34,655 nt of DNA from the IMG/VR virus record IMGVR_UViG_2548876936_000010. One strand, given 5' to 3'. Under the pieces are notes generated by a model, which made no database searches, had not been told where the DNA came from, and saw only the letters and a program-made list of their open reading frames with translations. Of the stretch, positions 1 to 34,655 are shown one piece after another. This stretch comes from a virus. Taxonomy: Duplodnaviria; Heunggongvirae; Uroviricota; Caudoviricetes. Each line of letters opens with the position of its first letter. Positions within the stretch are counted from its first letter, which is position 1. The position numbers were made by a program, and so were the translations under genes.

Positions 1-219
1 TTACATCCACATAATTTGCTGCCCTGACGGCAACGGGTGCGGCCTCACGGCGTGGACTTCTCCCGGCTTCACGATGTATCGCTGTACCGACTCATAAGTG
101 ATGAACGTGGCGCTGCAATTCACGTTCTGGCACTGGTGATAACGCTCTTTTGTCGTGTCAGTGATATAGCGGCTTGTACGCGCATGTGCGGCATGCTGGC
201 ATAAAGGACAATGAAACAT
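1..219 (-). CDS. ogr: Ogr-type C4 zinc-finger late-gene transcription activator (72 aa from internal ATG at 219)
   Basis: ORF 1..294 (-); ATG at 219 gives MFHCPLCQH...CQNVNC with two Cys pairs, as in P2 Ogr; lies downstream of D as in P2. Confidence 0.85.
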   Translation of the reverse strand: MFHCPLCQHAAHARTSRYITDTTKERYHQCQNVNCSATFITYESVQRYIVKPGEVHAVRPHPLPSGQQIMWM

Positions 220-300
220 CGCGAGCACCTCTTCCGGTTTTGTTGATAGTGCCATTTTAGTTAATTTATCCTTATAAAACAAACAGATAAACAAAATACA

Positions 301-1464
301 TCACTCATAATCTTCTGTTTCGTACTCCACATCAGAAAGCCTGACCTCAAGCTCTAAGGACGTCGTGAAGCCGCTATTATTCAGAAAATGTGTCACCTTA
401 GTGATTGTCCAGTCCTGCTCGTCTATGACGCGCTTAAAGCCTGACACTCTGACCGGTGTTTCCGTGTAAATATCTGCACGACCGGTAGCCAGGATGATGG
501 AGAACTCCGCAACGCCCCGTTGCAGTTTATCCCACTTCGCCTGAGCGGCACGCATGGCCTGCGCTTTTGTGGCATATACCGTGGTCAGGGCAAAAACGTT
601 GTCAGCTTCACCTGCCATGTATTCACCTTCGCGCGCTTCCGGTGCTTTTGGCGCTTTCTTCTGCGTGACCGGTTTCGCTTTCGGGTGCTCCAGTGCGCGC
701 AGGTGTTTCTCTTTCTTTTTGCGTTTCAGTTTTACCTTCTGCTTTTGCGGCTTCGGGTCTTTGGTGTGTAACCACTTTGCCGTTACGCCGGTGTAAGCTC
801 CACGGTCAGCAATCGCAAAATGATGACGGTCGCCGTCGCTGCGGGTGATGGTAATCTGCGGGATTTTTTTACCGCTGGCCGTCACCCCCTGCCCCGCTTT
901 GAGAAACAGCAGTTTTCCCATTTTTACCGACACCTCACCGCCGTTGCGTTCAGCAAGGCGGGTCAGGAATTTCGCATCAGACTCCTGCGACTGGTCGATG
1001 TGCGGAATTTTAATTCCGGCCAGTGACGGAGCGACACTGGCTTCCAGCCTGTTACGGGAGGCTATCGCCTCAACAATCGCGCCGAGTGTGGTGTCATGCC
1101 AAGAGCCTTCCCGGCGGGAATTAAGCGTCCCGCGGAAATCTGCACTCCGGGCGCGGATGGTAACCACATCCGGCGCGCCCCGGTGTTCAACCTCATCAAC
1201 GGTAAATTTCCCTTTGCATACCAGGGCAAAACCTTTCCAGCCGATATACACCGTCAGGACAGCGCCACGAATCGGTAGCCCGACCAGCCCATCGGCGTCG
1301 TTCAGTTCAATATCAAGCTGGTCAGCCTCAAAGCCCCGGTTATCCGTCAGGGTCATGCTCATCAGACGGTCGCTGATATTGCCGGTAATATCCCTGCTGT
1401 CGAGCATCAGCATGTAATCCGGCGTCAGCGTACTGCCTGCATCAAATGTCAGCGCATCCAGCAT
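301..1464 (-). CDS. D: Late control / tail protein gpD (387 aa)
   Basis: 387-aa ORF with ATG at 1464; position between U and ogr; length equals P2 D (recalled). Confidence 0.85.
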   Translation of the reverse strand: MLDALTFDAGSTLTPDYMLMLDSRDITGNISDRLMSMTLTDNRGFEADQLDIELNDADGLVGLPIRGAVLTVYIGWKGFALVCKGKFTVDEVEHRGAPDVVTIRARSADFRGTLNSRREGSWHDTTLGAIVEAIASRNRLEASVAPSLAGIKIPHIDQSQESDAKFLTRLAERNGGEVSVKMGKLLFLKAGQGVTASGKKIPQITITRSDGDRHHFAIADRGAYTGVTAKWLHTKDPKPQKQKVKLKRKKKEKHLRALEHPKAKPVTQKKAPKAPEAREGEYMAGEADNVFALTTVYATKAQAMRAAQAKWDKLQRGVAEFSIILATGRADIYTETPVRVSGFKRVIDEQDWTITKVTHFLNNSGFTTSLELEVRLSDVEYETEDYE

Positions 1465-1943
1465 TATCCCGCCTCCGTCATACCCGTGAATTTAGTCGCC
1501 ATACTGCCAGCCTTACCGATGAGCGATTCCGCCTGTTTACCGATATCGCCATAAAGCGCGGCCAGTGATTCATCAACGCGGGTGAGCGACAGCGTAAAAT
1601 CAATTTTTCGGGGTGTGCCGTCTGCAAAGAAAATACTCCCTGTTTCACTCACCCTGCTGATGACATACATGCCGTAAATCATGCCGGTGCCATCCAGCAA
1701 CGGCCACGCCCGACCTTCCTCTGCCATCAGCCTGAGCGTGGTCATCGTCAGCTTGCCGCCGGTCAGTTCGGGATAAAGCACACCGGCCAGCGTGATGTTT
1801 TCCTCACCCACACCGAGAAATTGAAAGGCATCCCGTTTGCCGATACGGGAATTTGACGGCCAGCGATAATCTGATTCACGCTGCATGGTCTGGTGTGGCA
1901 GCGTCTGGCGCATAAAAACAAACATACCTAACGCGAGCATCAT
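1464..1943 (-). CDS. U: Tail protein gpU (159 aa)
   Basis: 159-aa ORF between T and D; stop overlaps D start; synteny and length as P2 U. Confidence 0.85.
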   Translation of the reverse strand: MMLALGMFVFMRQTLPHQTMQRESDYRWPSNSRIGKRDAFQFLGVGEENITLAGVLYPELTGGKLTMTTLRLMAEEGRAWPLLDGTGMIYGMYVISRVSETGSIFFADGTPRKIDFTLSLTRVDESLAALYGDIGKQAESLIGKAGSMATKFTGMTEAG

Positions 1944-1957
1944 TTTTCGTCACCTCC

Positions 1958-4405
1958 TTAACCGTCATGCATCATGCTGGCACGGGCGCGCGCACGTTTA
2001 TCCCGCTCGTATTTTTCGAGCGCATCCTGTAACTGGCGGTCAAGCTGTGTCCCCGGCGCAGTACCACCCGTCAGGCTGATGTGATATTCGTTTTTACTCT
2101 GGTCTACATAAGAGCGGCCAGCCGGTGCCGTGACCGGCTGATAAGCCTGATAGCCTGCATAAGAGCTGGTCGCCGGAATATAACCACCGCTGCCATACGT
2201 GGCGGCTTGAGTTCTGGCGGCGGTCTGGTCAAGTGTGTCTGACTCTTTGTTGATAACACCGAGTTTTTCCAGTACCCAGTCAATACCACTGCGCAGTTTG
2301 TTGAACGCATTAAGCGGCAGCATCAGCGCGTCAGCCAGTGCCTGCCCGAACATGACGCCCGTGTCACGGCAACGGTTCAGGGTGTCCTGGGTGGCTTTGA
2401 CCGGGGCAATCAGGTTTTTAAACCACTGCCACGCGGCCTGTAACTTTTCACCCAGCCAGTCAAACACCGGCTTCAGTGGCGTGAACAGTTCCCCCACCGG
2501 CGCAAATGCCGCTTTCAGCCCTTCAACCACACCGCCAAAGAATGCGCTGACAGGCTCCCAGTATTTACGGATAAGCAACGCCCCGGCGACAATGGCGGCC
2601 ACCACGGCCACAACCGGCCAGCTAATCGCCCCGATGGCCGTCATAACAGCACTGCTAACCGTCGTGAAGATTGCCCCCATTGCGCCTGCTGCCGCGATAA
2701 TGGCATTGATGCCGGTGATAACCGGCCAGGCTACAAGACCAATGGTACCGATGATGCCAATAAGCGCCAGCGCGCCACCGACAATGAGGCCGATGGTTGA
2801 CGCCAGTGATTTGTTTTTCTGGATCCAGCCGTCGAGTTTTAACACATACTTTGTGGCCGTCTGAGTGAGCTTACGCAGTGCGCCTTCCTGCTGGTCAAAC
2901 AGGTCAGTCCCCACTGCCTCATAAGCGGACTGAAACTCTTTAAAGTCACCGCCTAGGTTGTCCTGCATGATATTTACCAGCTCGGCGGTCTTCCCGTCTG
3001 AGGCTTTAAACGCAGCGGTCAGTTTGTCCAGCTTTCCGGTTGAGGCGGCAGTCATCAGCACGGCGGCGGCTGAGCTGGCCTCCTCCCCGAAAATAGTTTT
3101 CATGTATTCAGCCTGCTGGGCAGTACCGAGCCGGTTTTTCTCAAAACTGGCCTGCATTTCTTTCAGAATGGTAAATATTGGCCGGGTGTTTCCCTTGCTG
3201 TCTGAGGTTTTCACTCCAAGCTCTTTGAGTGCATCCCATGCTTTTCCCGTCGGTGCCTGCAGGCGGCTTAACACGGCACGGCTTCCCGTCCCCGCCATTG
3301 AGCCTGTGATTTTTGCATCATGCAGCGCCCCGACCATTGCGGCGGTTTCTTCAATGCTGACACCGGCATTTTTTGCCACAGGTGCGGCATAGGTCAGCGC
3401 ATCGCTCATGCCGTCAAAATCGGCGGCGGTTTTGTTCATCGTCATGGAGAGAACATCCCCGATATGAGCGACCTTATCGTTTGAAAGCTGAAAGGCGGAT
3501 TTCATCCCCATCAGCAGGGCGGCGTTTTCTTCCATCGTGCGACGGTTCGCCAGCGCCATATTCAGCGTGACCGGCGTTGCCGCCTGAATGGCATCAACAT
3601 CCCCACCGGCTTTTGCAATGATAATCTGCGCACCGGCTGCATCATCCGCCGAGGCGGCGGTGTTGTCGCCGAGCTGGCGCGCCTGTTTGCGGAGCGCGGC
3701 CATTTCGGCGGAGTCTTTTGCCACGCCGAGCACAGCCTGTAATTCTGAGTTTTTCTGCGCAAACTCATAACCGGGCATCAGCAGCTTAACTCCGGCCATC
3801 GTTCCCGCCGCCGCAATCCCCACACCGGCAGCGCCCACTGAGGCCATATTTCCGGCCAGTTCCTTTCCGGCCTGATAACGCTGTTTGACTGCGTTAAGTT
3901 TTGCCTGTTGCGCACTGACACGCGCCAGCGCGTCACGCTGCCGGTTAAGCTGCGCGGTGGTTTCACTGATACGGTTTTTCAGCCCCTGCTCATCATGTGC
4001 AAGATTGCGGGTATTAATTCCCACAGCAGCCAGTTCCCGCTGCTGGCGTTTAACGGAATCCGTCAGGCGGTTATATTTCGCCTGTAAGTCCTCCGCCGCT
4101 CGCTTTGCGGATTCCAGCACTTTCGCCTGAGCACGGGTCGGACGTTCGGTATTTTTAAACTGTGTGGCAAGGGCTTCGGCTTCCAGCCGTGCCTTCTCAA
4201 GTGCATGACCAGTCACGGCGAGCTGTGCGCTGGTCTTGCGAAATCCCTCAATATGGGATGCGTGACCGTTCAGCTCGCGCAGTGATTTTTGTGTGTCCCG
4301 GATATCCCCCGACAGCGACTTGCTCGCTGTACGGATGGATTTAAACGGGCGGGATGCCTGGTCAACAGCCCTGAGCAATACCTGTAATTTTACATTGTTA
4401 CTCAT
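1958..4405 (-). CDS. T: Tail tape measure protein gpT (815 aa)
   Basis: 815-aa ORF, Ala/Gln-rich helical N-terminal part, long hydrophobic Gly/Ala-rich central segments, between E/E' and U; ATG at 4405. Confidence 0.9.
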   Translation of the reverse strand: MSNNVKLQVLLRAVDQASRPFKSIRTASKSLSGDIRDTQKSLRELNGHASHIEGFRKTSAQLAVTGHALEKARLEAEALATQFKNTERPTRAQAKVLESAKRAAEDLQAKYNRLTDSVKRQQRELAAVGINTRNLAHDEQGLKNRISETTAQLNRQRDALARVSAQQAKLNAVKQRYQAGKELAGNMASVGAAGVGIAAAGTMAGVKLLMPGYEFAQKNSELQAVLGVAKDSAEMAALRKQARQLGDNTAASADDAAGAQIIIAKAGGDVDAIQAATPVTLNMALANRRTMEENAALLMGMKSAFQLSNDKVAHIGDVLSMTMNKTAADFDGMSDALTYAAPVAKNAGVSIEETAAMVGALHDAKITGSMAGTGSRAVLSRLQAPTGKAWDALKELGVKTSDSKGNTRPIFTILKEMQASFEKNRLGTAQQAEYMKTIFGEEASSAAAVLMTAASTGKLDKLTAAFKASDGKTAELVNIMQDNLGGDFKEFQSAYEAVGTDLFDQQEGALRKLTQTATKYVLKLDGWIQKNKSLASTIGLIVGGALALIGIIGTIGLVAWPVITGINAIIAAAGAMGAIFTTVSSAVMTAIGAISWPVVAVVAAIVAGALLIRKYWEPVSAFFGGVVEGLKAAFAPVGELFTPLKPVFDWLGEKLQAAWQWFKNLIAPVKATQDTLNRCRDTGVMFGQALADALMLPLNAFNKLRSGIDWVLEKLGVINKESDTLDQTAARTQAATYGSGGYIPATSSYAGYQAYQPVTAPAGRSYVDQSKNEYHISLTGGTAPGTQLDRQLQDALEKYERDKRARARASMMHDG

Positions 4406-4825
4406 TCGTGTTTCCGCTTCGCCGGAGCGCCTTTTCGCGCCATGTGATGAGTTCGGTCAGGCTCATGGGATACAGTTCTGATGGCGGCCAGTGAAATATC
4501 ACTGCCACATCCGCCATCAGGTCATCGACCGACAGATTTTTCGGAAACGTCACTGCACCGAGTTCGGCGACAAAAAACCGACCACCTTACCGGCCAGCGC
4601 CACAAGGTCAGGCAGTTCCAGCGCGGCGACTTCCTGCTCGGTCAGCATCGGTGCCGTCATGCGCGGCAGCACCTTAATCAGTGCATCGACTTCTGAGTTT
4701 GCGACCGCAGCCAGACTGACACCGCGCAGCGTCCCCGCACTGGGTTTCATCAGAGTGACCTGTTCGATAACCTGCTCACCACGCTTGACCGGATTGTCCA
4801 GGGTAATCACATTTTCTTTGTTCAT
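4398..4825 (-). CDS. E+E': gpE+E' frameshift-extended tail chaperone (predicted 142 aa via -1 slip at TTTTTTG, - strand 4577..4571)
   Basis: Hand translation: codons GGT TTT TTG (G F L) in E frame; after -1 slip the frame stays open for 57 codons to TAA at 4400..4398, overlapping T start; same architecture as P2 E/E'. Confidence 0.7.
4550..4825 (-). CDS. E: Tail assembly chaperone gpE (91 aa)
   Basis: 91-aa ORF directly upstream of T; ends ...VVGFLSPNSVQ; contains slippery TTTTTTG near its 3' end. Confidence 0.85.
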   Translation of the reverse strand: MNKENVITLDNPVKRGEQVIEQVTLMKPSAGTLRGVSLAAVANSEVDALIKVLPRMTAPMLTEQEVAALELPDLVALAGKVVGFLSPNSVQ

Positions 4826-4881
4826 GGTTTTCTCACTTATGAATCGGGGTTAACCGGTCAGCCAGGCTGACCGGATGAAAA

Positions 4882-5400
4882 TCACAGGCCGATATTGCGG
4901 CGGTGTTGCTCCAGCCGGTCGACGCCGTTCACCTTCTCAATCATGTTGATGGTGTCGATTTCGACCAGCTCCTTACCGTCCATCGTCAGCCGGAAATAGG
5001 TGCAGACCACGGAGATTTTCGACTCGGTGTCTTCTCCCTGTTTGCCCTCGCCGGTGTCGATTTCTTTCTGACGTCCACGCATGACCACCTCGACGGCCAC
5101 CGTTTCGCCGGTATCGTCGCGCTGGTAAGAGCCAGCAAAACGAATCGGCACGGCATCCACGCCGGTTGCGGCGTAAAGCTCCCAGATAACCGAATCCGGG
5201 AAGCCCCCGAGCGACCACTCCATTGACAGCGCATCGTCATCAAGGCCGAGGTCTACCGGTGCGCTGCCGTTCATCCCCGCACCGCGATAGTTTTCAAGCT
5301 TACGGGTCAGTTTTGGCAGCGTGACGGACTTTGCAACGCCCTGATAGCTGTAGCCGTTCAGAAAGACGTTCATTAACTTGAGTTTGCGCGGCATTGCCAT
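4882..5400 (-). CDS. FII: Tail tube protein gpFII (172 aa)
   Basis: 172-aa ORF between FI and E; ATG at 5400; synteny and length as P2 FII. Confidence 0.85.
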   Translation of the reverse strand: MAMPRKLKLMNVFLNGYSYQGVAKSVTLPKLTRKLENYRGAGMNGSAPVDLGLDDDALSMEWSLGGFPDSVIWELYAATGVDAVPIRFAGSYQRDDTGETVAVEVVMRGRQKEIDTGEGKQGEDTESKISVVCTYFRLTMDGKELVEIDTINMIEKVNGVDRLEQHRRNIGL

Positions 5401-5412
5401 CGGTCAGGCTCC

Positions 5413-6603
5413 TTAATTGCTGTTAACCGAAGTGACCAGATTTGCCAGGTATTTATCGGTAATACGCTGGCGCAGGGTCAGGTTTTCGAGAGGAGGCACC
5501 GGTGTATAGTCGTAGTCGATATACAGTTTTCCGGCCTTGAGGGTTTCCGCATCGTTGGATTCTTCGCTGAACCAGCAGGTCGCATCCACGATATAGCCGT
5601 TTGTTTTCAGCTCACGGAATTTGGCATTAATGCCGTCAACGATGTCGCGAATCAGCGTTGCGGTGATGGGCTTATCCACAGCCCACATGTGCGCCTCAGC
5701 CATCGTGTCGGCCAGCACCTGCGCGGTGCGGGTGTAGTTTTCAAAGAGGAACAGCGGGTCATCAGAGCAGGTACGGTTACCCCAGAAGCGGAAACCGTCA
5801 CGGCGAATCAGCGTTGTGACGCCTGACTCGTTAAGCAGGTCAGCATCGGTGCCGGACTCCTGCAAATCCCAGAATACGGACGCGCTGATGCCGGTAACAC
5901 CGTTTACCCCGACGTTGGACAGCGTTTTATGCCAGCCCTGCTCCTGGTCGATTTTAGCGCGCAGACCCAGCGCACGGGCGGTGGCATACGCGGTGGCGGT
6001 GGTACTGGTGACCGTATCCCATGCGAGGAAATCCGGCCAGATGACCATCAGCTCACGCTGGCTGAAATTCTGGCGGTAGGCTTTCACCTCGGAAATGGTC
6101 TTACAGCCCCATGCGCTGATATATCCGAAAGCGCGCAGCTTCTGACAGACGGATGCCAGTGCAACAGCCACCTCTTTGGTATCCAGTCCCGGCACACCGA
6201 GAATACGCGGTTTAACACCGGTTACCGACTCCGCCGCCAGCAGGGCTTTTAGTCCGGTGTACTGACCGTTTTCGTCGGTGGTGCCGATGATATTGGAAAC
6301 GGTCTGCGCGAGTTTCGTTTCCTCGTCATCACCGGTGCCGTCTTCCACGCGCACGACAACGGTGACCGGTTTTGACTGGTCAGCGATGGCCTGCAACGAT
6401 GCCGCCAGCGTGCCTTTTTTACCGGCCTTTGCAATTGCGCTTTGCACATTGGTAATCAGCACCGGTTTATTGAGGGGGAAGGTTTCCGCATCCGCATCGC
6501 TGGCCGTGCAGACCATGCCGACAATGGCAGTGGATACGGTGGAAATGACGCGGGTGCCGTCGTTAATCTCCAGCACCTGCACGCCATGATGATAGTCACT
6601 CAT
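5413..6603 (-). CDS. FI: Contractile tail sheath protein gpFI (396 aa)
   Basis: 396-aa ORF, ATG at 6603, first gene of the FI-FII-E-T-U-D block. Confidence 0.9.
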   Translation of the reverse strand: MSDYHHGVQVLEINDGTRVISTVSTAIVGMVCTASDADAETFPLNKPVLITNVQSAIAKAGKKGTLAASLQAIADQSKPVTVVVRVEDGTGDDEETKLAQTVSNIIGTTDENGQYTGLKALLAAESVTGVKPRILGVPGLDTKEVAVALASVCQKLRAFGYISAWGCKTISEVKAYRQNFSQRELMVIWPDFLAWDTVTSTTATAYATARALGLRAKIDQEQGWHKTLSNVGVNGVTGISASVFWDLQESGTDADLLNESGVTTLIRRDGFRFWGNRTCSDDPLFLFENYTRTAQVLADTMAEAHMWAVDKPITATLIRDIVDGINAKFRELKTNGYIVDATCWFSEESNDAETLKAGKLYIDYDYTPVPPLENLTLRQRITDKYLANLVTSVNSN

Positions 6604-6698
6604 CCGTTTAACTCCGTGGTTAATGGGTGCAACTATTTTCTGTTGTGCAGAGCATAAGACGCTATTTGACCTGGCTGGTCAGTGGATGAAACAACAGA

Positions 6699-6727
6699 TA
6701 AAGAAAAGGCGGGCAATTCGCCCGCCT
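6699..6727 (-). terminator. Candidate intrinsic terminator (8-bp GC stem aggcgggc/gcccgcct, 5-nt loop, T-rich tail on - strand)
   Basis: Inverted repeat 6707..6714 / 6720..6727; - strand continues tttctttatc; lies between the cargo island and the FI start. Confidence 0.45.
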
Positions 6728-6786
6728 GTCCTGATTTGTACTCACTCATTTTCCGCCTGACAATTTACATAGCCCAAATGCTATCA

Positions 6787-6802
6787 AATCTGACAGTCTG
6801 CT
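6787..6802. repeat. Left copy of 16-bp perfect inverted repeat aatctgacagtctgct bracketing the FI-G cargo island
   Basis: Exact reverse complement of 9220..9235; a related direct copy at 9092..9116. Confidence 0.8.
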
Positions 6803-6933
6803 TTGAGCGAAAAGTGGACATTAGAGTTACAAAAGCAAGTTTAAATCATCCAAAATATTACAATGTCCTTATCTATCTGATATCGTTATGATAAAAAGCT
6901 CCTGAATATAATCGATAGTAGGTGGTTATTTCC

Positions 6934-7311
6934 ATGAAATCAATTTTAGAGGTTTTTACTCAAGGAAATACTAAAGAAAAACTGGCTGTTATCGCCGATC
7001 TCACAACCATTGCGGGAATATCGATTGCAACTATTATTGCTGGTTTGTTAACCCTAGTTGCAAAAACAGATAAACTAGATGTTGGAAATCTGTTTGGAGT
7101 TGTCATAATATCTCTGCTCGGATTGGCTGGTGTTTGCTGTTTTGTGGCCTTATTTATTTGGGTTATAACCCAAATGTCTAAACCATGGGGAACACCTCGG
7201 GGGGTTCAGCCCTTAGTTAAGTGTGCTATTTCCCTTATCTTTATCTGTATGTTTTTGCTGGCTGTCTTTACATTTTATGAGTTTATTTCTTCGATGAGCA
7301 TACGCTATTGA
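6934..7311 (+). CDS. Small hydrophobic membrane protein (125 aa, about 3-4 predicted TM helices), function unknown
   Basis: ATG at 6934 preceded by aggtgg; long hydrophobic stretches (IAGISIATIIAGLLTLVA, VVIISLLGLAGVCCFVALFIWVI, ISLIFICMFLLAVFTF); AT-rich relative to flanking phage genes. Confidence 0.6.
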   Translation: MKSILEVFTQGNTKEKLAVIADLTTIAGISIATIIAGLLTLVAKTDKLDVGNLFGVVIISLLGLAGVCCFVALFIWVITQMSKPWGTPRGVQPLVKCAISLIFICMFLLAVFTFYEFISSMSIRY

Positions 7312-7333
7312 ATATAAAATCAGCCCCCATAAC

Positions 7334-7918
7334 TTAAAAGAGACCTTCTATATCGACTTCAATGCCCAAATAACGGACTGTGCTTTCCAGTTTCTTATGG
7401 CCCAACAGAAGTTGGATCACCCGGAGACTCTTGGTTTTCTTGTAGATTAAGTAAGGTTTTGTTCTTCTCATGGAATGTGTGCTGTACAGCGAATCTTCGA
7501 GACCAAGCTTTTCTACCCACCCATGAAAAATTCGGTTGTATTGCCGGGTTGATATATGGTGGTTAGTTCCGACCCGAGAGCGGAACAGGAAGCCTTTACT
7601 ATGCCAGTTACCGAGCTTTATCAATGCAGTAACCGCTTCCCTTGTCCCTTTGGTTATCTCAAATTGGACAGGGCTGCCGGTTTTCTGTTGCAACACCGTT
7701 GCTCTGCTTGAGACAGAACTGCCATATGCAGCATCTGATACTTTGAGTTTGACCAAATCACAGCCCCGTAGCTTAGTGTCCAAAGCCATGTTGAACAGAG
7801 CTAGATCGCGTGTTTTACCTTCCAACTCAAGTCTAATCCGGATCCCCCAGATATGAGATATCTGAAGTGGCCTTTTTTGACCGATGGTACGGTCTTTATT
7901 CCACGGTGACGTTTTCAT
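7334..7918 (-). CDS. Small stand-alone tyrosine recombinase (about 194 aa, catalytic domain only)
   Basis: ATG at 7918 preceded by AGGAGA; candidate catalytic residues present: R in KLRGCDL, K in QQKTGSPV, HSMRRT (HxxR), LLGHKKLESTVRYLG (H and Y); no N-terminal arm/core-binding domain. Confidence 0.7.
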   Translation of the reverse strand: MKTSPWNKDRTIGQKRPLQISHIWGIRIRLELEGKTRDLALFNMALDTKLRGCDLVKLKVSDAAYGSSVSSRATVLQQKTGSPVQFEITKGTREAVTALIKLGNWHSKGFLFRSRVGTNHHISTRQYNRIFHGWVEKLGLEDSLYSTHSMRRTKPYLIYKKTKSLRVIQLLLGHKKLESTVRYLGIEVDIEGLF

Positions 7919-8024
7919 ATTCAAATCTCCTGCAATGTGGGAGATTTGAGTATGGTTGTCTCTCAAGAGCGAAAATAAGTCAACTATTACTAGTTGTTGC
8001 GCATGTACGTATTCTGTCAATTAA

Positions 8025-8867: not shown

Positions 8868-8905
8868 ATATTTCTCCTGTTGTACAAGCTTCCATAAGTT
8901 GGCAG

Positions 8906-26512: not shown

Positions 26513-26519
26513 GCTAAGA

Positions 26520-26548
26520 ATAATGCAACAAAAAAATAAGAATTTCAA
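26520..26548 (-). promoter_or_regulatory. Candidate sigma70-type promoter for the RT module (-35 TTGAAA, 17-nt spacer, -10 CATTAT)
   Basis: - strand ggTTGAAAttcttatttttttgttgCATTATtc; -35 at 26548..26543, -10 at 26525..26520; between cos and the structured leader. Confidence 0.3.
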
Positions 26549-26586
26549 CCGGGTAACTGCAAGCCAGCGACATCGTTTAGCGCGCA

Positions 26587-26605
26587 GTGCTTTCCCCGCC
26601 TCGCC
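26587..26605 (-). other. cos: cos cohesive-end site (19 nt), - strand reads GGCGAGGCGGGGAAAGCAC
   Basis: + strand gtgctttccccgcctcgcc is the reverse complement of the 19-nt cohesive end I recall for P2. Confidence 0.65.
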
Positions 26606-26810
26606 CGCCCGCTACATGGGGCGGTTTTAATGCAGTTGCATGAACACGCCGGAGGCGTGCCAGCACTGGCGGCTCTCACACGTGACGAGAAAGGAAAACG
26701 CATGCGATTCAATGCAGTAATGCATGCAGGGCTAAAAATGTCAGAAAATACGGTAAAAACGCATAAAAAACCGGCATTCAGGTTACCGGTTTGAGTCAGC
26801 TTCATTGTGG

Positions 26811-26912
26811 TTACTTGTCGCGCAATGCGCCAATAATACTGGTAAGGCAACAAGTGGCAACAATCAGCAAAAAAACCGTTGTCCACGGATTCTCATAAAC
26901 GAGAGATAACAT
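26811..26912 (-). CDS. Possible small hydrophobic peptide (33 aa, MLSLVYENPWTTVFLLIVATCCLTSIIGALRDK)
   Basis: ATG at 26912 to TAA at 26813..26811, translated by hand; single TM-like segment; weak RBS; below the ORF-track size cut-off. Confidence 0.25.
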   Translation of the reverse strand: MLSLVYENPWTTVFLLIVATCCLTSIIGALRDK

Positions 26913-27312
26913 ATTGATATTGATCCTTTTATTGGTACATTATAATGCGACATTATCGGTCTTTAACAACCTGGCTGAGTTCTATCTTACCAATTTTCGT
27001 GATAAGCATTTAATCAATTACGTAGTATGGTTAAAGGCACACAAAGGAGAAAAATATGCGAATGCATTTTTTAGACAACCGACTTCCAAAAATCTTTTCA
27101 ACGTAATACAAAAAATTACAACCATCTATCAATTACAAATTAACAAATATCAACACTACCAGCTTAATTGCAGCAAAGATCAGGAGATAACATCACCACA
27201 ACAATAAATCAAAAACTGTTAGATTTGGCCAGAAATGCCAACTCCACACATAAATTCACGCAGATACATAGTTCATAATTAAACAATTTATCGACTTGGA
27301 GCGAATAGAATA

Positions 27313-28317
27313 ATGTCAAAAGAAAACACACCAATGGAACCAAGCATAAATATAAAGGCAGACTTCACTGAGATATTAAATTCATCGCCAAAGGGCGTTA
27401 AGTATATATTCAATATTCTCTTCGGAAAAAAACACGCAGAGGCCGAGAGAAGGATTAGGCTATCGAACGCTCAAGATTATGCAGATATGAAAAAGATCAT
27501 ATCTGGAGAAGCAACATATGATAATGAGAGGAACCAAATAACACCTTCTAACCAAGACATTAAGTCATTAATTGTTAGTGCATTGCAGGATGAGGAAATT
27601 AAAAATCTTATAGGCTGCATCAGAAGCGCCTCAGAATACATTAAAGATGATACTGATAACGATGGTGGTCCATCCCAAGACTTTATTAACAGATGGCGAA
27701 GCGATGCGAAACTAATCAGTGAACAGTCTATCCAGTACGTTTGGGGGCGAATTCTAGCGGAAGAAATAAACACACCTCAAACTGTAAGCGTAAGAACCCT
27801 TGATGTAATAAAAAACCTATCAAAAGAAGAGGCTGAATATTTCTCAGAGGTACTTGACTTTATATTTTACGATTCTTATTTGATTGATAATGGAGATACC
27901 AAGAATCCATTCATCTCACCAGAAAAAGGTCATAAATTGAGAGATGCAGGATTAATAGTTACTTTTACTCCTGGAATGTATTTCTCCGAGACATGGGATA
28001 CACAACATTTTGTTCTCAGTGGAGCCACCATACCAAAAGTATTCTACATCAGCAGTTCTGATAAGTATTACTTTATCGATGCAGGCAAAATAACTGACGA
28101 CCCTAAAATTCTGGTATGGAAGTTAACAAATGCTGGCAAAGAACTATATAAAATTCTAAAGAAAGATCATAAAACCAAAGAAGAATCAGTAAAAAAAATT
28201 ATTGACTGGATATTAAACAGCACTAAAGCTTCTGAGTTTTACCATGGGGATATTATTAAACATTCAGACAATAGCCTGTCAGTTGAGAACTTACTGACTA
28301 TAAGCAGAAATAGATAG
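27313..28317 (+). CDS. Hypothetical protein (334 aa), AT-rich cargo at the position P2 uses for tin/old
   Basis: ATG at 27313 with ggag upstream; no Walker A or other motif I can recognise; convergent with A; followed by a hairpin. Confidence 0.65.
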   Translation: MSKENTPMEPSINIKADFTEILNSSPKGVKYIFNILFGKKHAEAERRIRLSNAQDYADMKKIISGEATYDNERNQITPSNQDIKSLIVSALQDEEIKNLIGCIRSASEYIKDDTDNDGGPSQDFINRWRSDAKLISEQSIQYVWGRILAEEINTPQTVSVRTLDVIKNLSKEEAEYFSEVLDFIFYDSYLIDNGDTKNPFISPEKGHKLRDAGLIVTFTPGMYFSETWDTQHFVLSGATIPKVFYISSSDKYYFIDAGKITDDPKILVWKLTNAGKELYKILKKDHKTKEESVKKIIDWILNSTKASEFYHGDIIKHSDNSLSVENLLTISRNR

Positions 28318-28353
28318 AACATCAAAACAAGGCCCCATATCTAATCAGTATAC

Positions 28354-28392
28354 GAACAGGCAAGAACATCCGTTTTTGTCTGTTCCTTTCAA
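28354..28392 (+). terminator. Candidate intrinsic terminator (14-bp stem with two G-U pairs, 4-nt loop, then ctttcaaaac)
   Basis: gaacaggcaagaac (28354..28367) / gtttttgtctgttc (28372..28385), 37 nt after the stop of the 334-aa gene. Confidence 0.45.
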
Positions 28393-28762
28393 AACAACCC
28401 CCCGCATCCCCATAATACTAAAAGATGTTTTTCCTTTTATTCAAACCCACAATAATGTTTACGCTCAATAATAAAAAACATCAGAATATTTTTTGACTCC
28501 TACACAGCTTGCTTCTCAACCCCGTTGTGTATATCATCAGGACCAAGCCATTTCACACCAGTGTTATCCATCACTTGTTCAGAAATCATCGCTACTTTTA
28601 TGACAGAGTAGTGACTCTATATACTAAGAATTACGACCGCCCTTATTATCCTGACTTTCATCAATAAAGAAAATAATACCGCCAGCTTTATCTCTTGGTG
28701 AATAAGGAGGGCCAGTGCCAGTGCTAACCAGATAACTGCCTATCTGAATTAACTTGTTGTCA

Positions 28763-31048
28763 TTAGCTCCACTCCGTTTCTGTTGAATACCCCGGCCACT
28801 CATCAGCGACCGCATAACTGAATTTTTTCTCGCCATATATCACCGTTGCACCTCGCGTCAGCGCCTCAAGCTCCCATCGCTGCGGTCTGATACCGTTCTG
28901 AGCAAGGTCAACGCGGATAGGGATGATTTGCAATCGTTCAGACCTGGTCAGTCTGGCAGATGGTGCAATTTCATGCGGTTTTAACGGGCTTCCGTTTCTT
29001 TGCTGACGATTTGATGTTCTCAGGCCGTGTTTTAATGCGCCCCTGAGCGCCCTCACGACCTCCGGGTCATTCCATTCGATAACACCGTCATCAACCAGAT
29101 TAAGCACTGCTGAGGCGTGCTCAGAAGGTGTGGGAGCCGGTAACGAAATATCACCACCGGTGAGCTTTCCACAGTTATTGACAGGACTCCGAGGCGCGGC
29201 GATGCCGCTTTTTAAAGTCAAAGGCTCAACGACCGGAACTTTCGGCACAATGCGCCAGTCCGTCGTTCTGGTGATATGAATATGACGCGCGCCGAGATGC
29301 GGCGCGTAAATGCCGACCACTCTCTCGACTTCTTCCTCGTACTCGTTAACGTCATCCGACGGGCTACGGGCAACCCTGACAGTCTGACAATCGCGCGGGA
29401 CATTTGCCCCACCCTGCGCGCTGATATACAACGCAAAATCACCACTGTCTGCGGCAGCGCGAGCAGCCTCGACGCGTTCGTCAAACTCATCAGCAATACT
29501 GACGCCGCGAGGCAATTTGCGTAGTTCACGGTAAGCCCCCATTGTCGGCAGGCCAACCGTTTTAAATTGCGGAATTCGCCACGTTGACGCCCATGCGGTA
29601 ACAGCCGCAGCAGTATCTTTCAGCGGCCTGCCGGTATCATTATCGAGCTGACCATCCAGTGCATAGCCATCGATGTTTTTTGAGATGTATTTTGCGATAT
29701 ACCCCGCAGCACCGCCCCGGTTAAGATGTTTTGCCTGAAAACGGTTTCGCGCGGCTCCTCTTTCGTCGCCATCCTCTTTGAGCGCATAGCGACGCATGAT
29801 TTCGATAATCTGGTTACGCTGGCGTGGATTACAAAAAAGCATCATATGCCAGTGCGGCGTTCCGTCGTGGTGTGGCTCGACGACACGCAAACCGTAGACC
29901 TGTAAATCATTATCCTTGAATGCCGTGCGCATCAGGCTCCAGATATGGCAGAGATAACGCTGCGCATCCTTTGGATTAAATGCCTCATCGTTCCAGCCGT
30001 GATTTAGCTGGACGGTTTTACTTTCGCCTTTTCCGACCTGACGTGTCGGGTGATACTTTGACGGCGCGGTAAGCGTGATAAACATCCCCACATCACCCTC
30101 TGCGGCGGCGTAACGCTCAATACCGGCAATGGTGTTCATCAGCTCCATCCGGCGAATTTCAGGATTAGAAATACTGCCCATCACCTTACTGATAAGGTCG
30201 ATGCGTTCGCCGGTTTCCCTGTTTTCAAGGTCACACGATTTAAGAAATTCCAGATTTGCCTGGCGGCGTGCACGCACATCACGAATGGCATGTTTACTGG
30301 CATAAGGTGAACGGTCTTTATTGACCTCCCCGACAGCAATCAGTAACGCCTCATGCCAGCGCATACGCTGGCCTTTAAGCTGACTAATCCACCACTCATC
30401 GTTAAACAGGCGGGCAATGGCAGAATATGCCTGCCTCGTGGTCATCTGTCCTTTACGGTATTTTTTCCAGTAGAGCGGGGAAATATTGAAAGCACGTGCA
30501 GCGCCAGCAACATGACCATAGAGGTGAGCCTGCGCCTCATCCGTAAACAGCGATTCTTTTTCGCCATGCGCATCCACCCAGGCATCGCAGAGTTCCTCAT
30601 ACATCATGAAAAGCTGCGATGAGATACGGGCGGCAAACTTTTTCAGCTCCTTATCATTCATCCCCGGCAGACGCGCATAATGGTCACGCTCTGCCAGAAA
30701 CAGCAACGACGCGTCGGTGTTCATTTCATGGCGCTGATTCACGCGCTCAATGCGCGGCCATAAACGACGCTGAAAAGTGGATGTGAGGAAATAAAACCCG
30801 TGCACCGGGCTTTTATTGCGCCGGATGTAGTCATAGCGTGAAGTAAACAGCGAGCGCAAAAAGTAAGGCAGGCGGTTAATCGTGGATAAAACACCTTGCA
30901 CCTGACGCATCTCGTCACGTGTAAGGGGTCTTTCGCGCCCGACGGCCTCGCGTGGCGCGTTCCATGCATAAGCACCGGTAAACGCCTTACCGGTGCCTGC
31001 AGCAAATGCTGACGGAGGGACAAAACGCCCGGAGGCTTTAACGGCCAT
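28763..31048 (-). CDS. A: Rolling-circle replication initiator gpA (761 aa from ATG at 31048)
   Basis: ORF 28763..31090; contains HUH-type motif (PHWHMMLF) and tyrosine motif GYIAKYISK; internal start MAVKASGRF... Confidence 0.85.
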   Translation of the reverse strand: MAVKASGRFVPPSAFAAGTGKAFTGAYAWNAPREAVGRERPLTRDEMRQVQGVLSTINRLPYFLRSLFTSRYDYIRRNKSPVHGFYFLTSTFQRRLWPRIERVNQRHEMNTDASLLFLAERDHYARLPGMNDKELKKFAARISSQLFMMYEELCDAWVDAHGEKESLFTDEAQAHLYGHVAGAARAFNISPLYWKKYRKGQMTTRQAYSAIARLFNDEWWISQLKGQRMRWHEALLIAVGEVNKDRSPYASKHAIRDVRARRQANLEFLKSCDLENRETGERIDLISKVMGSISNPEIRRMELMNTIAGIERYAAAEGDVGMFITLTAPSKYHPTRQVGKGESKTVQLNHGWNDEAFNPKDAQRYLCHIWSLMRTAFKDNDLQVYGLRVVEPHHDGTPHWHMMLFCNPRQRNQIIEIMRRYALKEDGDERGAARNRFQAKHLNRGGAAGYIAKYISKNIDGYALDGQLDNDTGRPLKDTAAAVTAWASTWRIPQFKTVGLPTMGAYRELRKLPRGVSIADEFDERVEAARAAADSGDFALYISAQGGANVPRDCQTVRVARSPSDDVNEYEEEVERVVGIYAPHLGARHIHITRTTDWRIVPKVPVVEPLTLKSGIAAPRSPVNNCGKLTGGDISLPAPTPSEHASAVLNLVDDGVIEWNDPEVVRALRGALKHGLRTSNRQQRNGSPLKPHEIAPSARLTRSERLQIIPIRVDLAQNGIRPQRWELEALTRGATVIYGEKKFSYAVADEWPGYSTETEWS

Positions 31049-31313
31049 ATGAGCCAAAAGCCTCTGAACAACGCCTGCTGAGTTGCTCAACCTGCGCGTT
31101 TAAATCAGCAAAAGACTTTGCGCTTCCGGTCAGAATATCGTGATGCATCAGGCCGGAAACAAGCTGGCTTAATTTCGGGTAATAACCAACCACCGCCAGC
31201 CATTCCTGACCGGCGTTTTTACCGCTTTCCGCTCTCTTTTTCTCGTGGAGAATAAACTGGAAGCTGTCACTGGTAACGACATAACGTTCGCCAATTTCAA
31301 TACGAATACTCAT
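31038..31313 (-). CDS. Small early-operon protein (91 aa), P2 orf83-position
   Basis: 91-aa ORF immediately upstream of A, overlapping its start; synteny only. Confidence 0.5.
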   Translation of the reverse strand: MSIRIEIGERYVVTSDSFQFILHEKKRAESGKNAGQEWLAVVGYYPKLSQLVSGLMHHDILTGSAKSFADLNAQVEQLSRRCSEAFGSYGR

Positions 31314-31534
31314 GCCGTTCTCCGGTAATGTTTGTTTTTTGCTTCAAAGACTGACTGACAGGAAACACAACGCGTGGCTGACGGATAAGCCGCACGACGG
31401 GCAGCAGGTATTGGCGCGTCACACTCTTCGCAAACCAGCGCAGAAGCACCGCAATGTTTTACCCTTGCCGCGTTAATCTGGCGCTCCAGTAATTCAGCCT
31501 GTTGTTCCTGAATAAAATCTACGTTGTCCGGCAT
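31310..31534 (-). CDS. TraR/DksA-type C4 zinc-finger protein (74 aa)
   Basis: CxxC...CxxC pattern (CEECDAPIPAARRAAYPSATRCVSCQ) near the C-terminus. Confidence 0.6.
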   Translation of the reverse strand: MPDNVDFIQEQQAELLERQINAARVKHCGASALVCEECDAPIPAARRAAYPSATRCVSCQSVFEAKNKHYRRTA

Positions 31535-31536
31535 TA

Positions 31537-31839
31537 TCAGCTCCTTTTATCGTTAAGTTTCCTGGATACATCAGCGCAATAACTGGCAAGTTCTGTCGTT
31601 AATTTTGTCAGTTCATCCACTGAGGAAATTTGCTTGTGGAATACAGCGCGTTTAACAAGTAAATTGACCACATCAGACAGGAGGTTTAATTCATTCTGAT
31701 AAATCGCGATAACAGATTCAGTGATGTCGCGTTTTTCTTTATCAAGACAAAGTTGAATAAGAGACAAATCGCCATTTTTCATAACGGCGATTTTTAAGGC
31801 GTTATTCAGTAATACAACTGAATGAGAACAGGACATCAA
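31537..31839 (-). CDS. Small early-operon protein (100 aa), function unknown
   Basis: ORF tightly packed in the B-to-A operon (stop/start overlaps). Confidence 0.5.
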
Positions 31840-32093
31840 AGTACCTCCCCGCGAGACAATCCGATATTGTGAAATTTTTCCGACTCCTGACTGAGCAGCT
31901 CGACTATCTCCACGCGGGATAACTCCGCCTTTGTGATGTGGCGAATCATGGCGTCAAGATGAGAAGAAAAGCGCGTCGCCGCGTCGGCCTGTGCTTCGGT
32001 TCTGGCCTGTTGCAGCAGTAATGCGTATTTACCGCACTGATTTTCAGAAACTGTATGCATGACTTTCTCCAGGCAAAAAGAAGCCCCGCACAA
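31836..32093 (-). CDS. Small early-operon protein (85 aa or shorter from internal ATG), function unknown
   Basis: ORF between B and the next small ORF; overlapping stop/start. Confidence 0.45.
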
Positions 32094-32123
32094 TTAAGTG
32101 CGTTAAAAACTCTGGTTAATTAC

Positions 32124-32624
32124 TTAATGCAGATATTGCTCTGGTTTTACCGACGTCAGAATTGTCGGTGCATACTCAAACAGGCTGAATAATTCACGTA
32201 ATGCACGGAATAAAGCATCACGCCAGTAACATGACTCTTCATTAATTCGCCAGTATGGCTGGTTAAATTCTTTTTCTGTCAGTCGTGCGTGCATAAATAA
32301 AGTGCGACGCTGACTGACTGTTAAAAAACTAATATATGCATACTCACTTGCGCCAAGCTGACGGCGTTTTGAGAATGCCCCGCGCAATTCATCAATTGCA
32401 CATACCAGTCGTTCACGTTCGACGTCGTTCATTTCTTCAAAACGCATCGTTGCGTGACGCTGTTTTAACTGCGCATGAAAGCAAACCGTTAGCCGTTCGC
32501 GTTCCATCATCTGATTATAATAATCGCATGTCTCCTGCCAGCGAGGGACGGCCAGATGCTTACCAATTATCCGGCGCATAGTTGCTGGCTGTTTTTCAAC
32601 GAGATTGAGCGTCATCACTGTCAT
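32124..32624 (-). CDS. B: Replication protein gpB (166 aa)
   Basis: 166-aa ORF upstream of the small ORFs and A; length as P2 B. Confidence 0.75.
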   Translation of the reverse strand: MTVMTLNLVEKQPATMRRIIGKHLAVPRWQETCDYYNQMMERERLTVCFHAQLKQRHATMRFEEMNDVERERLVCAIDELRGAFSKRRQLGASEYAYISFLTVSQRRTLFMHARLTEKEFNQPYWRINEESCYWRDALFRALRELFSLFEYAPTILTSVKPEQYLH

Positions 32625-32818
32625 TTCCAGACCCTCCGGCTTTTCAGAAAGGTCAGAGCCTTCTTTAACGGACTCTGTTTTTTGGTGCGGATAATGATTC
32701 CCTTGCGTCCCTTCCCGTGGGTGATGGTAAAGTCAATCGCCCTGGGGCTTTCGTTACGCAATAACTGAGCAATACAACGAGGCTCGTTCATCCTTTCCAC
32801 CTTAAGCCGCACGGCCAT
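32621..32818 (-). CDS. Small basic protein between cox and B (about 56-65 aa; start uncertain)
   Basis: ORF 32621..32911 overlaps cox; internal ATGs at 32818 and 32791 are plausible starts; P2 orf78-position. Confidence 0.3.
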   Translation of the reverse strand: MAVRLKVERMNEPRCIAQLLRNESPRAIDFTITHGKGRKGIIIRTKKQSPLKKALTFLKSRRVWK

Positions 32819-33173
32819 GTCTTGATTTGCTGTAACTAATGCGATTTTTCCAGTCATGCCATTCTGTCGGAGCTTCATCAACCAGTTGGGCTGCGTACTT
32901 GTCCCACTCACGGCGATTAATCCATAATTCAGCTTTCCCTCTTGGTTTTAATGGGTCTGTCATGTAGAAGGCTGGCAGCTTTCCTGCTTTAGCCATTTCA
33001 GCCACCGCGCGTGGTGTCTTACCGATGTAAAGAGCAAAACCTTCTTTCGACAGCAAATCAGATGGGCGCTCTGAAATCTGAATGCTTTTACGTTTGGCTT
33101 CATTTTCGAAACTTGCCTCATCGCTAGTTGGACAAGAAATTTCTACATTTGTCGTCACTTTGCTATCCTCCAT
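32802..33173 (-). CDS. cox: Cox-like HTH protein (123 aa from ATG at 33173, or 118 aa from GTG after GGAGGA)
   Basis: HTH-like region FALYIGKTPRAVAEMAKAGKLPAFYMTD; first gene of the early operon divergent from C. Confidence 0.55.
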   Translation of the reverse strand: MEDSKVTTNVEISCPTSDEASFENEAKRKSIQISERPSDLLSKEGFALYIGKTPRAVAEMAKAGKLPAFYMTDPLKPRGKAELWINRREWDKYAAQLVDEAPTEWHDWKNRISYSKSRHGRAA

Positions 33174-33266
33174 AAGATTTGCGATTCACCAACTGGAGCC
33201 ATCTAGAGCCTTTTTGAGTGAATCACAAATTGCCAAGTAACAATATAATTGGAGATTAGCAAAATT
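33174..33266. promoter_or_regulatory. Immunity switch region between divergent cox and C (expected early and repressor promoters and operators)
   Basis: 93-bp intergenic region; contains 7-bp inverted repeat gattcac (33183..33189) / gtgaatc (33218..33224); assignment by synteny only. Confidence 0.4.
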
Positions 33267-33566
33267 ATGTCAAGTGAACAAAGTGAAAAACTAAAGCTCA
33301 TCCGTGAATCCGAACGCCTTAAAACTAAGGAACTTGCTGAATTAATTGGAATTAATTACTACACATATCATGGATATGAATCAGGAAAATCAAAAATGCC
33401 TATGGAAGCAGGTATGAAGCTGTTTAAGCATCCACGCTTTCGCAAGTATCGTGACTGGTTCATGTTTGATGAAACAGATCCAGCAGCTGGACAAATAGCC
33501 CCGGCTCTCGCACACATTGGGCAAGACTCAACAACCTTGCACCACTCAGACCAGAAAACTGGCTGA
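33267..33566 (+). CDS. C: Immunity repressor C (99 aa from ATG at 33267)
   Basis: ORF 33249..33566; ATG at 33267 after ggag; HTH-like KTKELAELIGINYYTYHGYESGKS; immediately upstream of int. Confidence 0.75.
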   Translation: MSSEQSEKLKLIRESERLKTKELAELIGINYYTYHGYESGKSKMPMEAGMKLFKHPRFRKYRDWFMFDETDPAAGQIAPALAHIGQDSTTLHHSDQKTG

Positions 33567-33659
33567 CGATTTATTCAGCATATGTGTGTAGTAAATGTAC
33601 GAAAGAAAATTGCATTAATTTTCAAGTAGTAGAAGTAAACAGCGTCATCGGAGGGCTTT

Positions 33660-34655
33660 ATGTCTATTAAAAAGCTCGATGATGGTCGTTATGAAGTGGA
33701 CGTCAGACCGCAGGGTGCAGATGGAAAACGTATCAGGCGGAAATTTAAAACTAAAGGTGAAGCTCAAGCATTCGAACGTCATGTACTGGTTAACTACCAC
33801 AACAAAGAGTGGCTGGAGAAACCAGCCGACCGCCGAACTCTTACAGAGTTGTTAGGCAGATGGTGGATATATCACGGAAAATCACATGAGCGTGGAGATA
33901 TTGAACGGGGGCGTTTAACGACAATAATCGCCAAATTTGCAGAAATGGGAGTGTCCAGAGCTGACCAGCTAACAAAGAAAACGATAACTGATTATCGCGT
34001 TGTAATGATGAACGATGGTCTAAAACCAGCCAGCGTAAATCGGCATCTGGCAATAATGAGCGGGATGTTCACCAAGTTAATTGACGCCGGTGAATACCAC
34101 TCTCACAACCCGTTCCGTGAGGTTAAGCGGTTACGTGAAGCTGTTACAGAAATGGCTTTTTTGTCCAGTGAAGAGATTACGCGACTGTTATCCATGCTTG
34201 ATGGTGATGAATTAAATGCGACTCTGGTCTGCCTTTCTACTGGTGGACGCTGGAGTGAAGTGTCTAATTTAAAAGCTGAACACATCATTAACCAGATGGT
34301 TACGTTTATGAAAACTAAAAACGGAAAGCGCAGGACAATTCCCGTTTCGCAGGACCTGATTAAACGGATCAAGACCAAAAATTCAGGCAGGCTTTTTAAT
34401 GCCAGTTACTACAAAGTGCGTAACGCTCTCCGGGAAGTAAAACCCGATTTACCTGACGGACAAGCAGTACATGTTTTGAGGCATACATTTGCCACACATT
34501 TTATAATGAATGGAGGTAACATAATCACATTGCAGCGCATCCTGGGTCATTCTAACATTCAGCAAACTATGACCTACGCACACTTTGCACCGGATTTCTT
34601 ACAAGATGCTGTGACTCTTAACCCGGTGTCAGGAATGTCCATAATGCGTCCATAA
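33660..34655 (+). CDS. int: Tyrosine integrase (331 aa)
   Basis: ATG at 33660 after ggaggg; C-terminal catalytic motifs HVLRHTFATHF and LGHSNIQQTMTYAHF; last gene before window end. Confidence 0.9.
   Translation: MSIKKLDDGRYEVDVRPQGADGKRIRRKFKTKGEAQAFERHVLVNYHNKEWLEKPADRRTLTELLGRWWIYHGKSHERGDIERGRLTTIIAKFAEMGVSRADQLTKKTITDYRVVMMNDGLKPASVNRHLAIMSGMFTKLIDAGEYHSHNPFREVKRLREAVTEMAFLSSEEITRLLSMLDGDELNATLVCLSTGGRWSEVSNLKAEHIINQMVTFMKTKNGKRRTIPVSQDLIKRIKTKNSGRLFNASYYKVRNALREVKPDLPDGQAVHVLRHTFATHFIMNGGNIITLQRILGHSNIQQTMTYAHFAPDFLQDAVTLNPVSGMSIMRP

Follow-up and report, generated by a model that had tools for sequence, protein, structure and literature searches.

The P2-like backbone and its passengers

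The stretch of DNA analysed here is the IMG/VR virus record IMGVR_UViG_2548876936_000010 (Caudoviricetes; 34,655 nucleotides, analysed at full length and referred to below as the window). It holds a P2-family prophage whose backbone genes are interspersed with a retron, a DUF2806 gene, a cassette including a DUF5677 gene, and orf30. Along the window, ogr, D, U, T, E, FII and FI are followed by the Z/fun slot and by G, H, I, J, W, V and orf30; then come S, R, lysC, lysB, lysA, K, Y, X, L, M, N, O, P and Q; and finally the retron, cos and the DUF2806 gene precede A, orf83 to orf80, B, orf78, cox, C and int. This gene order is that of P2 (NC_001895), in prophage permutation and reversed relative to the P2 map. 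The window runs from the ogr stop codon (positions 3 to 1) to the int stop codon (34653-34655), and contains no tRNA genes.

The integrity of the backbone was assessed by comparing 42 annotated P2 proteins with the window by tblastn. Thirty-seven backbone proteins, as well as Orf30, were recovered at full length, in P2 order and in unbroken frames, mostly at 95-100% identity; fun(Z), orf91, tin and old had no match in the window, their places being taken by other cargo. DNA identity to P2 is about 97% over the late and replication regions, and phages of the P2 group (P2, vB_EcoM-12474, P2_AC1, pro147, L-413C and Wphi) cover 80-85% of the first 25 kb at 96-97% identity in megablast searches. 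Short functional sites are also preserved. For example, the ori nick region inside A (29177-29202) and the E/E' slip site GGTTTTTTG match P2 exactly, and the E+E' product of the -1 frameshift is identical to that of P2. Departures from P2 within the backbone include variant alleles of the Q C-terminus, the pF site and the H C-terminus.

Base composition separates the backbone from its passengers. In a profile along the window, the guanine-cytosine (GC) content of the backbone is 0.52-0.62, whereas four regions are AT-rich, namely 6500-9250 (GC 0.34-0.45), 14250-15250 (0.35-0.38), 24250-26250 (0.30-0.37) and 26750-28750 (0.34-0.37). Low values also extend into the H C-terminus and G (0.41-0.45) and into the lysogeny module (0.40-0.48), because these are themselves mosaic modules.

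Overall, these features point to a temperate P2-family phage (Peduovirus) that is complete and probably viable and that resides as a prophage in the 5' end of Escherichia coli pflA, with passengers in known variable slots; the probability of this reading is put at roughly 0.85. The initial annotation, which had proposed an apparently intact P2-like prophage with a cos match, delimited by the ogr and int stop codons, with attachment (att) sites just outside and four AT-rich accessory regions, is borne out on these points. Its count of four cargo loci needs qualification: the four slots are variable and AT-rich, but the one between V and S holds P2's own orf30, which is not new cargo.

Lysogeny module, attachment site and inducibility

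The int, C and cox genes stand at the right end of the window in the P2 arrangement. The int gene (33660-34655, plus strand) encodes a protein of 331 amino acids (aa) matched by Pfam and PHROG integrase profiles and 53% identical to P2 Int. The 99-aa immunity repressor C (33267-33566, plus strand; phrog_147) is just 50% identical to P2 C and 99% identical to its counterparts in vB_YpM_46 and 11W. The cox-like excisionase/repressor (118-123 aa; 32802-33173, minus strand; phrog_1831 and phrog_272) is 35% identical to P2 Cox and 99% identical to proteins of isolated phages. Taken as a unit, the module is 99.1-99.7% identical to the isolated phages vB_YpM_46, D8, 11W and 12W, and isolated phages with this module have a 215-bp spacer between ogr and int. 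The distance from P2 thus implies another immunity type and another attachment site (pflA), and the module as a whole is predicted to be a different but functional immunity and integration type.

The junction with the host chromosome is visible at the int end. When the DUF2806 protein was looked up by exact match, it led to a contig (L003; Logan SRR21142972) whose sequence agrees with window positions 17313-34655 at 100.000% identity and runs past int. Beyond int, this contig tracks the ogr-int spacer of vB_YpM_46 for about 103 bp and then enters pflA, which places attL about 90-103 bp past int; the core common to the phage arm and pflA is GTCAGTTATTGGT. The flanking pflA-ycaD-ycaC-dmsC segment is 99.8% identical to E. 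coli. The corresponding ogr-side junction was located in a related prophage at the same site (L014), where it lies about 112-125 bp past the ogr stop and adjoins pflB; the position of the att sites just outside the window is, therefore, seen directly beyond int and deduced by analogy beyond ogr. A side effect of integration is that the phage arm supplies an in-frame ATG, so that the predicted PflA gains a 19-residue N-terminal extension (MSNLTNCNTTENTAAAGATK followed by SVIGRIH...; L003 17344-17460). The resulting protein is called as 265 aa by gene callers, versus 246 aa for the native protein.

The suggestion that the phage is probably inducible was not upheld. Neither a LexA box (CTGT-N8-ACAG) nor a tum-like gene was found in the window, and the repressor is a 99-aa helix-turn-helix protein of the P2 C type. 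P2 is classically non-inducible. The relative pro147 was recovered after mitomycin C treatment, as plaque-forming particles (PMC5285337), although this recovery does not separate induction from spontaneous release. The formation of infectious virions would be supported by analogy, both with pro147 and with the phages sharing the lysogeny module.

The cos core and its two flanks

The cos core spans 56 bp (26579-26634). It aligns with P2 1-27 at 100% identity (26605-26579) and with P2 33546-33593 at 95.8% (26634-26587), and includes the 19-nt cohesive end GGCGAGGCGGGGAAAGCAC at 26587-26605, an exact match to P2. The Q-retron and DUF2806 loci both abut this core: on one side, P2 28-262, comprising tQ and the final Q codons, is replaced by window 24264-26578; on the other, P2 30329-33545, comprising orf91, tin and old, is replaced by window 26635-28753. 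The gpA-cos-gpQ interval is a published P2 defence hotspot (PMC9122126), and further hotspots have been described within the late genes (bioRxiv 10.64898/2026.02.27.708500). The Z/fun and orf30 regions were earlier described as foreign DNA by Nilsson and colleagues, according to the passages citing them (PMC9122126; 10.64898/2026.02.27.708500). The initial annotation had listed Q-cos and cos-A as separate loci; they are two sides of one hotspot, but their contents do assort independently, as detailed below.

Immediately right of cos lies a conserved block that is not from P2 (26640-26950, about 310 bp, GC about 0.47). Its sequence is conserved at 80-91% identity irrespective of the adjoining cargo, among Salmonella phages as well as other P2-like phages and prophages, and it may constitute an extended packaging or promoter element. 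In one genome, the Prokaryotic Genome Annotation Pipeline calls an 89-aa hypothetical gene within it; the frame in the window is only 54 aa. Open reading frames of 113, 97, 54 and 38 aa around cos and the retron RNA were rejected as genes, as they are mostly skipped by gene callers and overlap cos or msr-msd. In related contigs, callers do place a 38-aa gene within this RNA (26320-26436, plus strand) and a 33-aa gene right of cos (26811-26912, minus strand), both probably spurious.

An Ec48-type retron between Q and cos

The Q-cos region (24264-26578) is a predicted type IV retron of the Ec48/Eco6 family, comprising a non-coding RNA (ncRNA), a reverse transcriptase (RT) and an effector with two transmembrane helices (2TM). 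The effector, a 235-aa membrane protein (24367-25074, minus strand), matches the PADLOC model 2TM_IV (4e-85) and the NCBIfam equivalog retron_Ec48_2TM (226.7 bits against a cutoff of 65), and its hydropathy profile predicts two helices, at residues 5-32 and 58-86. Its gene overlaps that of the RT by 4 nt (25071-25074). The RT (25071-26297, minus strand) matches PADLOC RT_IV (1e-176, 585.7 bits) and Pfam RVT_1. Gene callers start it at 26255 or 26261; the start at 26297 (408 aa) is favoured because it places the catalytic aspartates (LVDD) at residues 216/217, in agreement with how Ec48 mutants are numbered. In this RT, VTG and NAxxH, the motifs of most retrons, are replaced by VHG and CAKAH. 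The same deviations, the catalytic pair at 216/217 and an effector deletion of residues 3-85 have been reported for Ec48 (bioRxiv 2020.06.21.156273; PMC6868368), and the two helices of the window effector fall within that deletion. The window locus resembles Retron-Eco6 (Ec48) in its RT, overlapping 2TM effector and upstream ncRNA with a1/a2 repeats; its identity to the type retron is argued from the profile matches, aspartate numbering, VHG/CAKAH motifs and helix positions.

The msr-msd ncRNA covers 173 nt (26320-26492, minus strand) and was defined by repeats, folding and covariation, since neither the whole window nor the retron leader gave a real match in Rfam. The repeats a1 (26463-26471) and a2 (26334-26342) form an exact 9-nt inverted repeat that closes a structured region (fold z-score -3.3), with outer pairs reaching 26492 and 26320. 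The helix is also preserved in a Rahnella orthologue, whose RT is 53% identical, and in two IMG/VR loci (74-76%), and four of its pairs show compensatory changes on both sides across four sequences, which is a small sample. A scan of genome contigs for relatives of the RT yielded one locus. Upstream of the ncRNA, a consensus scan alone suggests a promoter-like site, TTGAAA-17-CATTAT (26520-26548, minus strand). At the other end of the retron, between Q and the effector, a two-way terminator hairpin (24336-24364; 13-bp stem, then a T-rich tail) takes the place of tQ, for which no match exists in the window.

Over 2,384 bp, the Q-retron-cos segment shares 99.7% identity with that of the plaque-forming phage pro147 (KR073660 / NC_028896), and the retron segment occurs at 99% identity or more in at least 58 complete E. 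coli genomes, every time beside the portal gene. Like the window, pro147 is P2-like and has the same Ec48-family retron between Q and cos, next to the same 339-aa Q. Unlike the window, it has a 514-aa RT gene right of cos, where the window has DUF2806; its lysogeny region matches that of the window at 95% over 86% of its length, and its Z/fun content differs. This second RT of pro147 (L011 6549-8093) is unrelated to the first, so that pro147 has RT-based cargo on both sides of cos.

By analogy with Ec48, the RT would copy the msd part of the ncRNA into multicopy single-stranded DNA (msDNA), the RT-msDNA complex would restrain the 2TM effector until an infecting phage inhibits RecBCD, and the freed effector would then kill the cell, resulting in abortive infection. 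Ec48 kills cells upon RecBCD inhibition and cannot be established in recB mutants (bioRxiv 2020.06.21.156273). The same RecBCD trigger logic is attributed to P2 Old (bioRxiv 10.64898/2026.07.10.737580). Old resembles the retron in its location between A and cos/Q, in killing RecBCD-compromised cells and in being escaped by lambda gam mutants. Protein and mechanism are unrelated, however: Old is an ABC ATPase-TOPRIM nuclease, whereas the window system consists of an RT, msDNA and a membrane effector. The loss of old and the presence of an Ec48-type retron at the same hotspot would, on this analogy, clearly illustrate how one mechanism can take over the function of another to which it is unrelated. 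The use of the slot by retrons has precedents, as Ec67 and Ec86 replace cos-terminator DNA in 186-like prophages (Dodd & Egan 1996, as cited in PMC6868368).

A DUF2806 gene between cos and A

The sole gene of the cos-A interval (26635-28753) encodes a 334-aa DUF2806 protein (27313-28317, plus strand; Pfam 1.4e-19, 71.3 bits against a cutoff of 24.5). A 76%-identical homologue fills the same Q-cos-A slot in Enterobacter P2-like prophages. Neither the gene itself nor its pairing with the retron is present among 5,426 complete E. coli genomes. In draft assemblies, DUF2806 is found both with and without the retron, which indicates that the two sides of cos assort independently.

A validated defence gene, 'Belisama', is described as DUF2806 with Abi-alpha homology (bioRxiv 2024.07.02.601686). 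The window protein has in common with it the DUF2806 domain, the single-gene format and a location in a prophage hotspot. It differs in lying below the Abi_alpha profile, which is matched by four of its 41 relatives, and in an additional C-terminal domain: the AlphaFold2 model (mean predicted local distance difference test score, pLDDT, 75) includes a confident, beta-rich C-terminal half, with weak matches to winged-helix structures. By analogy, the gene most likely encodes a one-gene abortive-infection or exclusion protein.

The slots within the late genes

The cargo between FI and G (6820-9202) is bounded exactly by 33-nt inverted repeats at 6787-6819, where homology to P2 breaks, and at 9203-9235; these are 82% complementary. 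The same repeats are annotated in AJ512683, around other Z-region cassettes. Three genes lie between them. The first (6922-7311, plus strand) encodes a 129-aa protein, called as 125 aa elsewhere, with three predicted transmembrane helices (hydropathy) and a full-length match to phrog_4155; it is convergent to the other two and invariably accompanies them. The second (7334-7918, minus strand) encodes a 194-aa tyrosine recombinase reduced to its catalytic domain (Pfam Phage_integrase, 1.5e-17, 64.4 bits against a cutoff of 27.1). Its H-x-x-R, H and Y align with H244/R247, H270 and Y279 of XerD, and the first R and the K of the R-K-H-R-H-Y set were assigned by inspection alone. The third (8025-8867, minus strand) encodes a 280-aa, all-helical DUF5677 protein.

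The cassette is common: 36 complete genomes carry it, as do 2,812 index blocks. Its orientation was the same in all ten loci compared, and it forms one colinear piece in the 25 genomes listed. Members of the recombinase family (194-200 aa; window 7334-7969, minus strand; loci L033-L040) retain 75-93% protein identity in distant Gammaproteobacteria, among them Proteus, Providencia, Pantoea, Idiomarina and Cycloclasticus. In these loci, DNA homology stops about 50 bp on each side of the gene, and the neighbours differ, being cargo regions of islands and of integrative and conjugative elements (ICEs). What is kept in every context is a hairpin (7915-7955), in which AAATCTCC pairs with the GGAG ribosome-binding site just 5' of the recombinase ATG. 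Diverged DUF5677 genes, for their part, occur singly in lambdoid prophages, in the vicinity of other defence genes. DUF5677 and the recombinase were, therefore, rejected as a conserved pair, since each is found without the other. An invertible switch was also discarded, because a single orientation is seen and the repeats flank recombinase-free cassettes as well; the same applies to a Fim-type DNA invertase (FimB/FimE), given the single orientation and a PRK09871 score of 22 bits against a cutoff of 222. The cassette might constitute an undescribed functional unit, either a new anti-phage system or a recombinase-driven cassette moving between the repeat-bounded P2 slots and the cargo regions of other elements, but this must be considered doubtful.

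The V-S slot holds orf30 (14302-15087, plus strand; GC 0.35), whose 261-aa product has three predicted transmembrane helices, matches phrog_2407 and is 99.6% identical to P2 Orf30. Elsewhere, this slot contains orf30, a 359-aa gene with a RelA_SpoT domain, or nothing (L012, L016 and L017), and this variation identifies it as a true exchange site.

These observations mostly confirm the established picture, in which P2-family prophages are vehicles for compact defence cassettes that can be exchanged at a limited number of fixed sites. Retrons beside cos have long been known, and what is new is not the concept, but the particular mosaic: the combination of the retron, DUF2806, the DUF5677 cassette and the pflA-type integrase is found neither in the phage collection nor in the complete E. 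coli genomes. To this picture are added the loss of old and tin with a presumably RecBCD-monitoring retron at the same hotspot, the independent assortment of the two sides of cos, and three flagged candidates, namely DUF2806, the DUF5677/recombinase/transmembrane cassette and orf30. The 'host-protective modules' proposed in the initial annotation hold in this graded sense: the retron belongs to a demonstrated type of defence system, and the other three loci are candidates only.

Alternative readings

Several points weigh against a complete, viable phage carrying protective passengers. The most general is that excision, virion production, msDNA synthesis and defence are argued, for this element, from sequence and analogy; the viability of the phage and the expression of its cargo are likewise presumed. 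The more specific points concern either the passengers or the lytic cycle.

With regard to the passengers, DUF2806, the Z/fun cassette and orf30 might have no anti-phage role and instead represent toxin or addiction modules, membrane proteins of lysogenic conversion, or remnants of other mobile elements stranded in permissive slots. PADLOC returns no match for the Z/fun genes or orf30, and only a sub-threshold PDC-M35B match for the DUF2806 protein (E = 0.0017). In Enterococcus, a DUF5677 gene showed no protective effect when tested (bioRxiv 2025.10.07.681051), the recombinase family also stands beside metal-resistance cargo in ICE-like elements, and Rousset et al. report non-defence genes in the P2 hotspot. 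Nevertheless, the slots occupied are documented defence hotspots, DUF2806 is related to Abi-alpha and to 'Belisama', and diverged DUF5677 genes adjoin other defence genes in prophages. A non-defensive role for these loci is, on balance, a serious minority possibility, somewhat unlikely as things stand.

With regard to the lytic cycle, the prophage could be cryptic, or 'grounded', that is, intact in appearance and kept for its cargo, with lytic growth blocked by missense changes, the pF site, the mosaic fibre or a damaged attR. Release of phage from P2-type prophages is rare. The pF Ogr region (6640-6700) differs substantially from P2, amid conserved surrounding sequence and a conserved upstream terminator; this allele is found, however, at about 94% identity in phages that have been isolated, 10W and 11W among them, and the lysogeny module, too, occurs in isolated phages. 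H is without a close full-length relative among phage records, and no record of the phage collection covers 80% or more of H plus G, so that host range and fibre function are presumptive; yet all 37 backbone frames are full length, mostly at 95-100% identity. The ogr-side junction is known from the related prophage L014 and not from the source genome, so attR was not seen for this genome, but the attL junction is intact. As exact P2 sequence is also kept at cos, the E/E' slip site, the ori nick and two of the Ogr sites, a grounded prophage appears improbable, and a viable phage is preferred.

Finally, the idea that the AT-rich segments are assembly chimeras or disruptive recent insertions, for example splitting Q from cos with loss of the packaging signal, draws on the replacement of P2 28-262 by the retron, including tQ and the last Q codons, and is essentially refuted by the identical Q-retron-cos arrangement in pro147 and the complete E. 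coli genomes, the retained cos core, the independent contig identical over 17 kb and the description of retrons in this slot since 1996.

Late promoters and backbone genes

The Ogr site common to pO and pP (21439-21469) is an exact match to P2 3057-3087, and the pV Ogr site (14260-14287) also matches P2 exactly. The variant pF late promoter region (6640-6727, minus strand) keeps its TGT-N12-CCA half-sites when aligned with P2, and a terminator scan places its hairpin at 6707-6727. The late-gene activator ogr (1-219, minus strand; coding 219 to 4, then the stop) encodes 72 aa that are 100% identical to P2 Ogr, from a promoter that is one base off that of P2.

The F operon (301-6603, minus strand) contains the tail genes D (301-1464), U (1464-1943), T (1958-4405), E and E+E' (4398-4825), FII (4882-5400) and FI (5413-6603), all full length and 97-100% identical to P2. 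The O operon (15093-21359, minus strand), with the head, lysis and tail-completion genes, is also full length, at 95-100% identity. It comprises S (15159-15611), R (15604-16071), lysC (16034-16324), lysB (16179-16604), lysA (16592-17017), K (17032-17529), Y (17529-17810), X (17814-18017), L (18017-18526), M (18626-19369), N (19373-20446) and O (20505-21359), and its terminator (15093-15129) is one base off P2. On the plus strand (21533-24324), P, the large terminase (21533-23305), is followed by Q, the portal (23305-24324), a 339-aa protein with a variant C-terminus. The early and replication genes (28763-32791, minus strand; 89-100% identical to P2) are A (28763-31048), orf83 (31038-31313), orf82 (31310-31534), orf81 (31537-31836), orf80 (31836-32060), B (32124-32624) and orf78 (32621-32791).

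The V operon (9288-14218, minus strand), with the baseplate and tail fibre genes, includes G (9288-9815), H (9819-11792), I (11803-12333), J (12326-13234), W (13239-13586) and V (13583-14218). H is an intact 657-aa mosaic, with a C-terminal part that is divergent from P2. Within it, a 132-bp (44-aa) unit is repeated in tandem and in frame, 3.7 times, at 10791-11274 (89% match), and short-read contigs of the same prophage break at this repeat.

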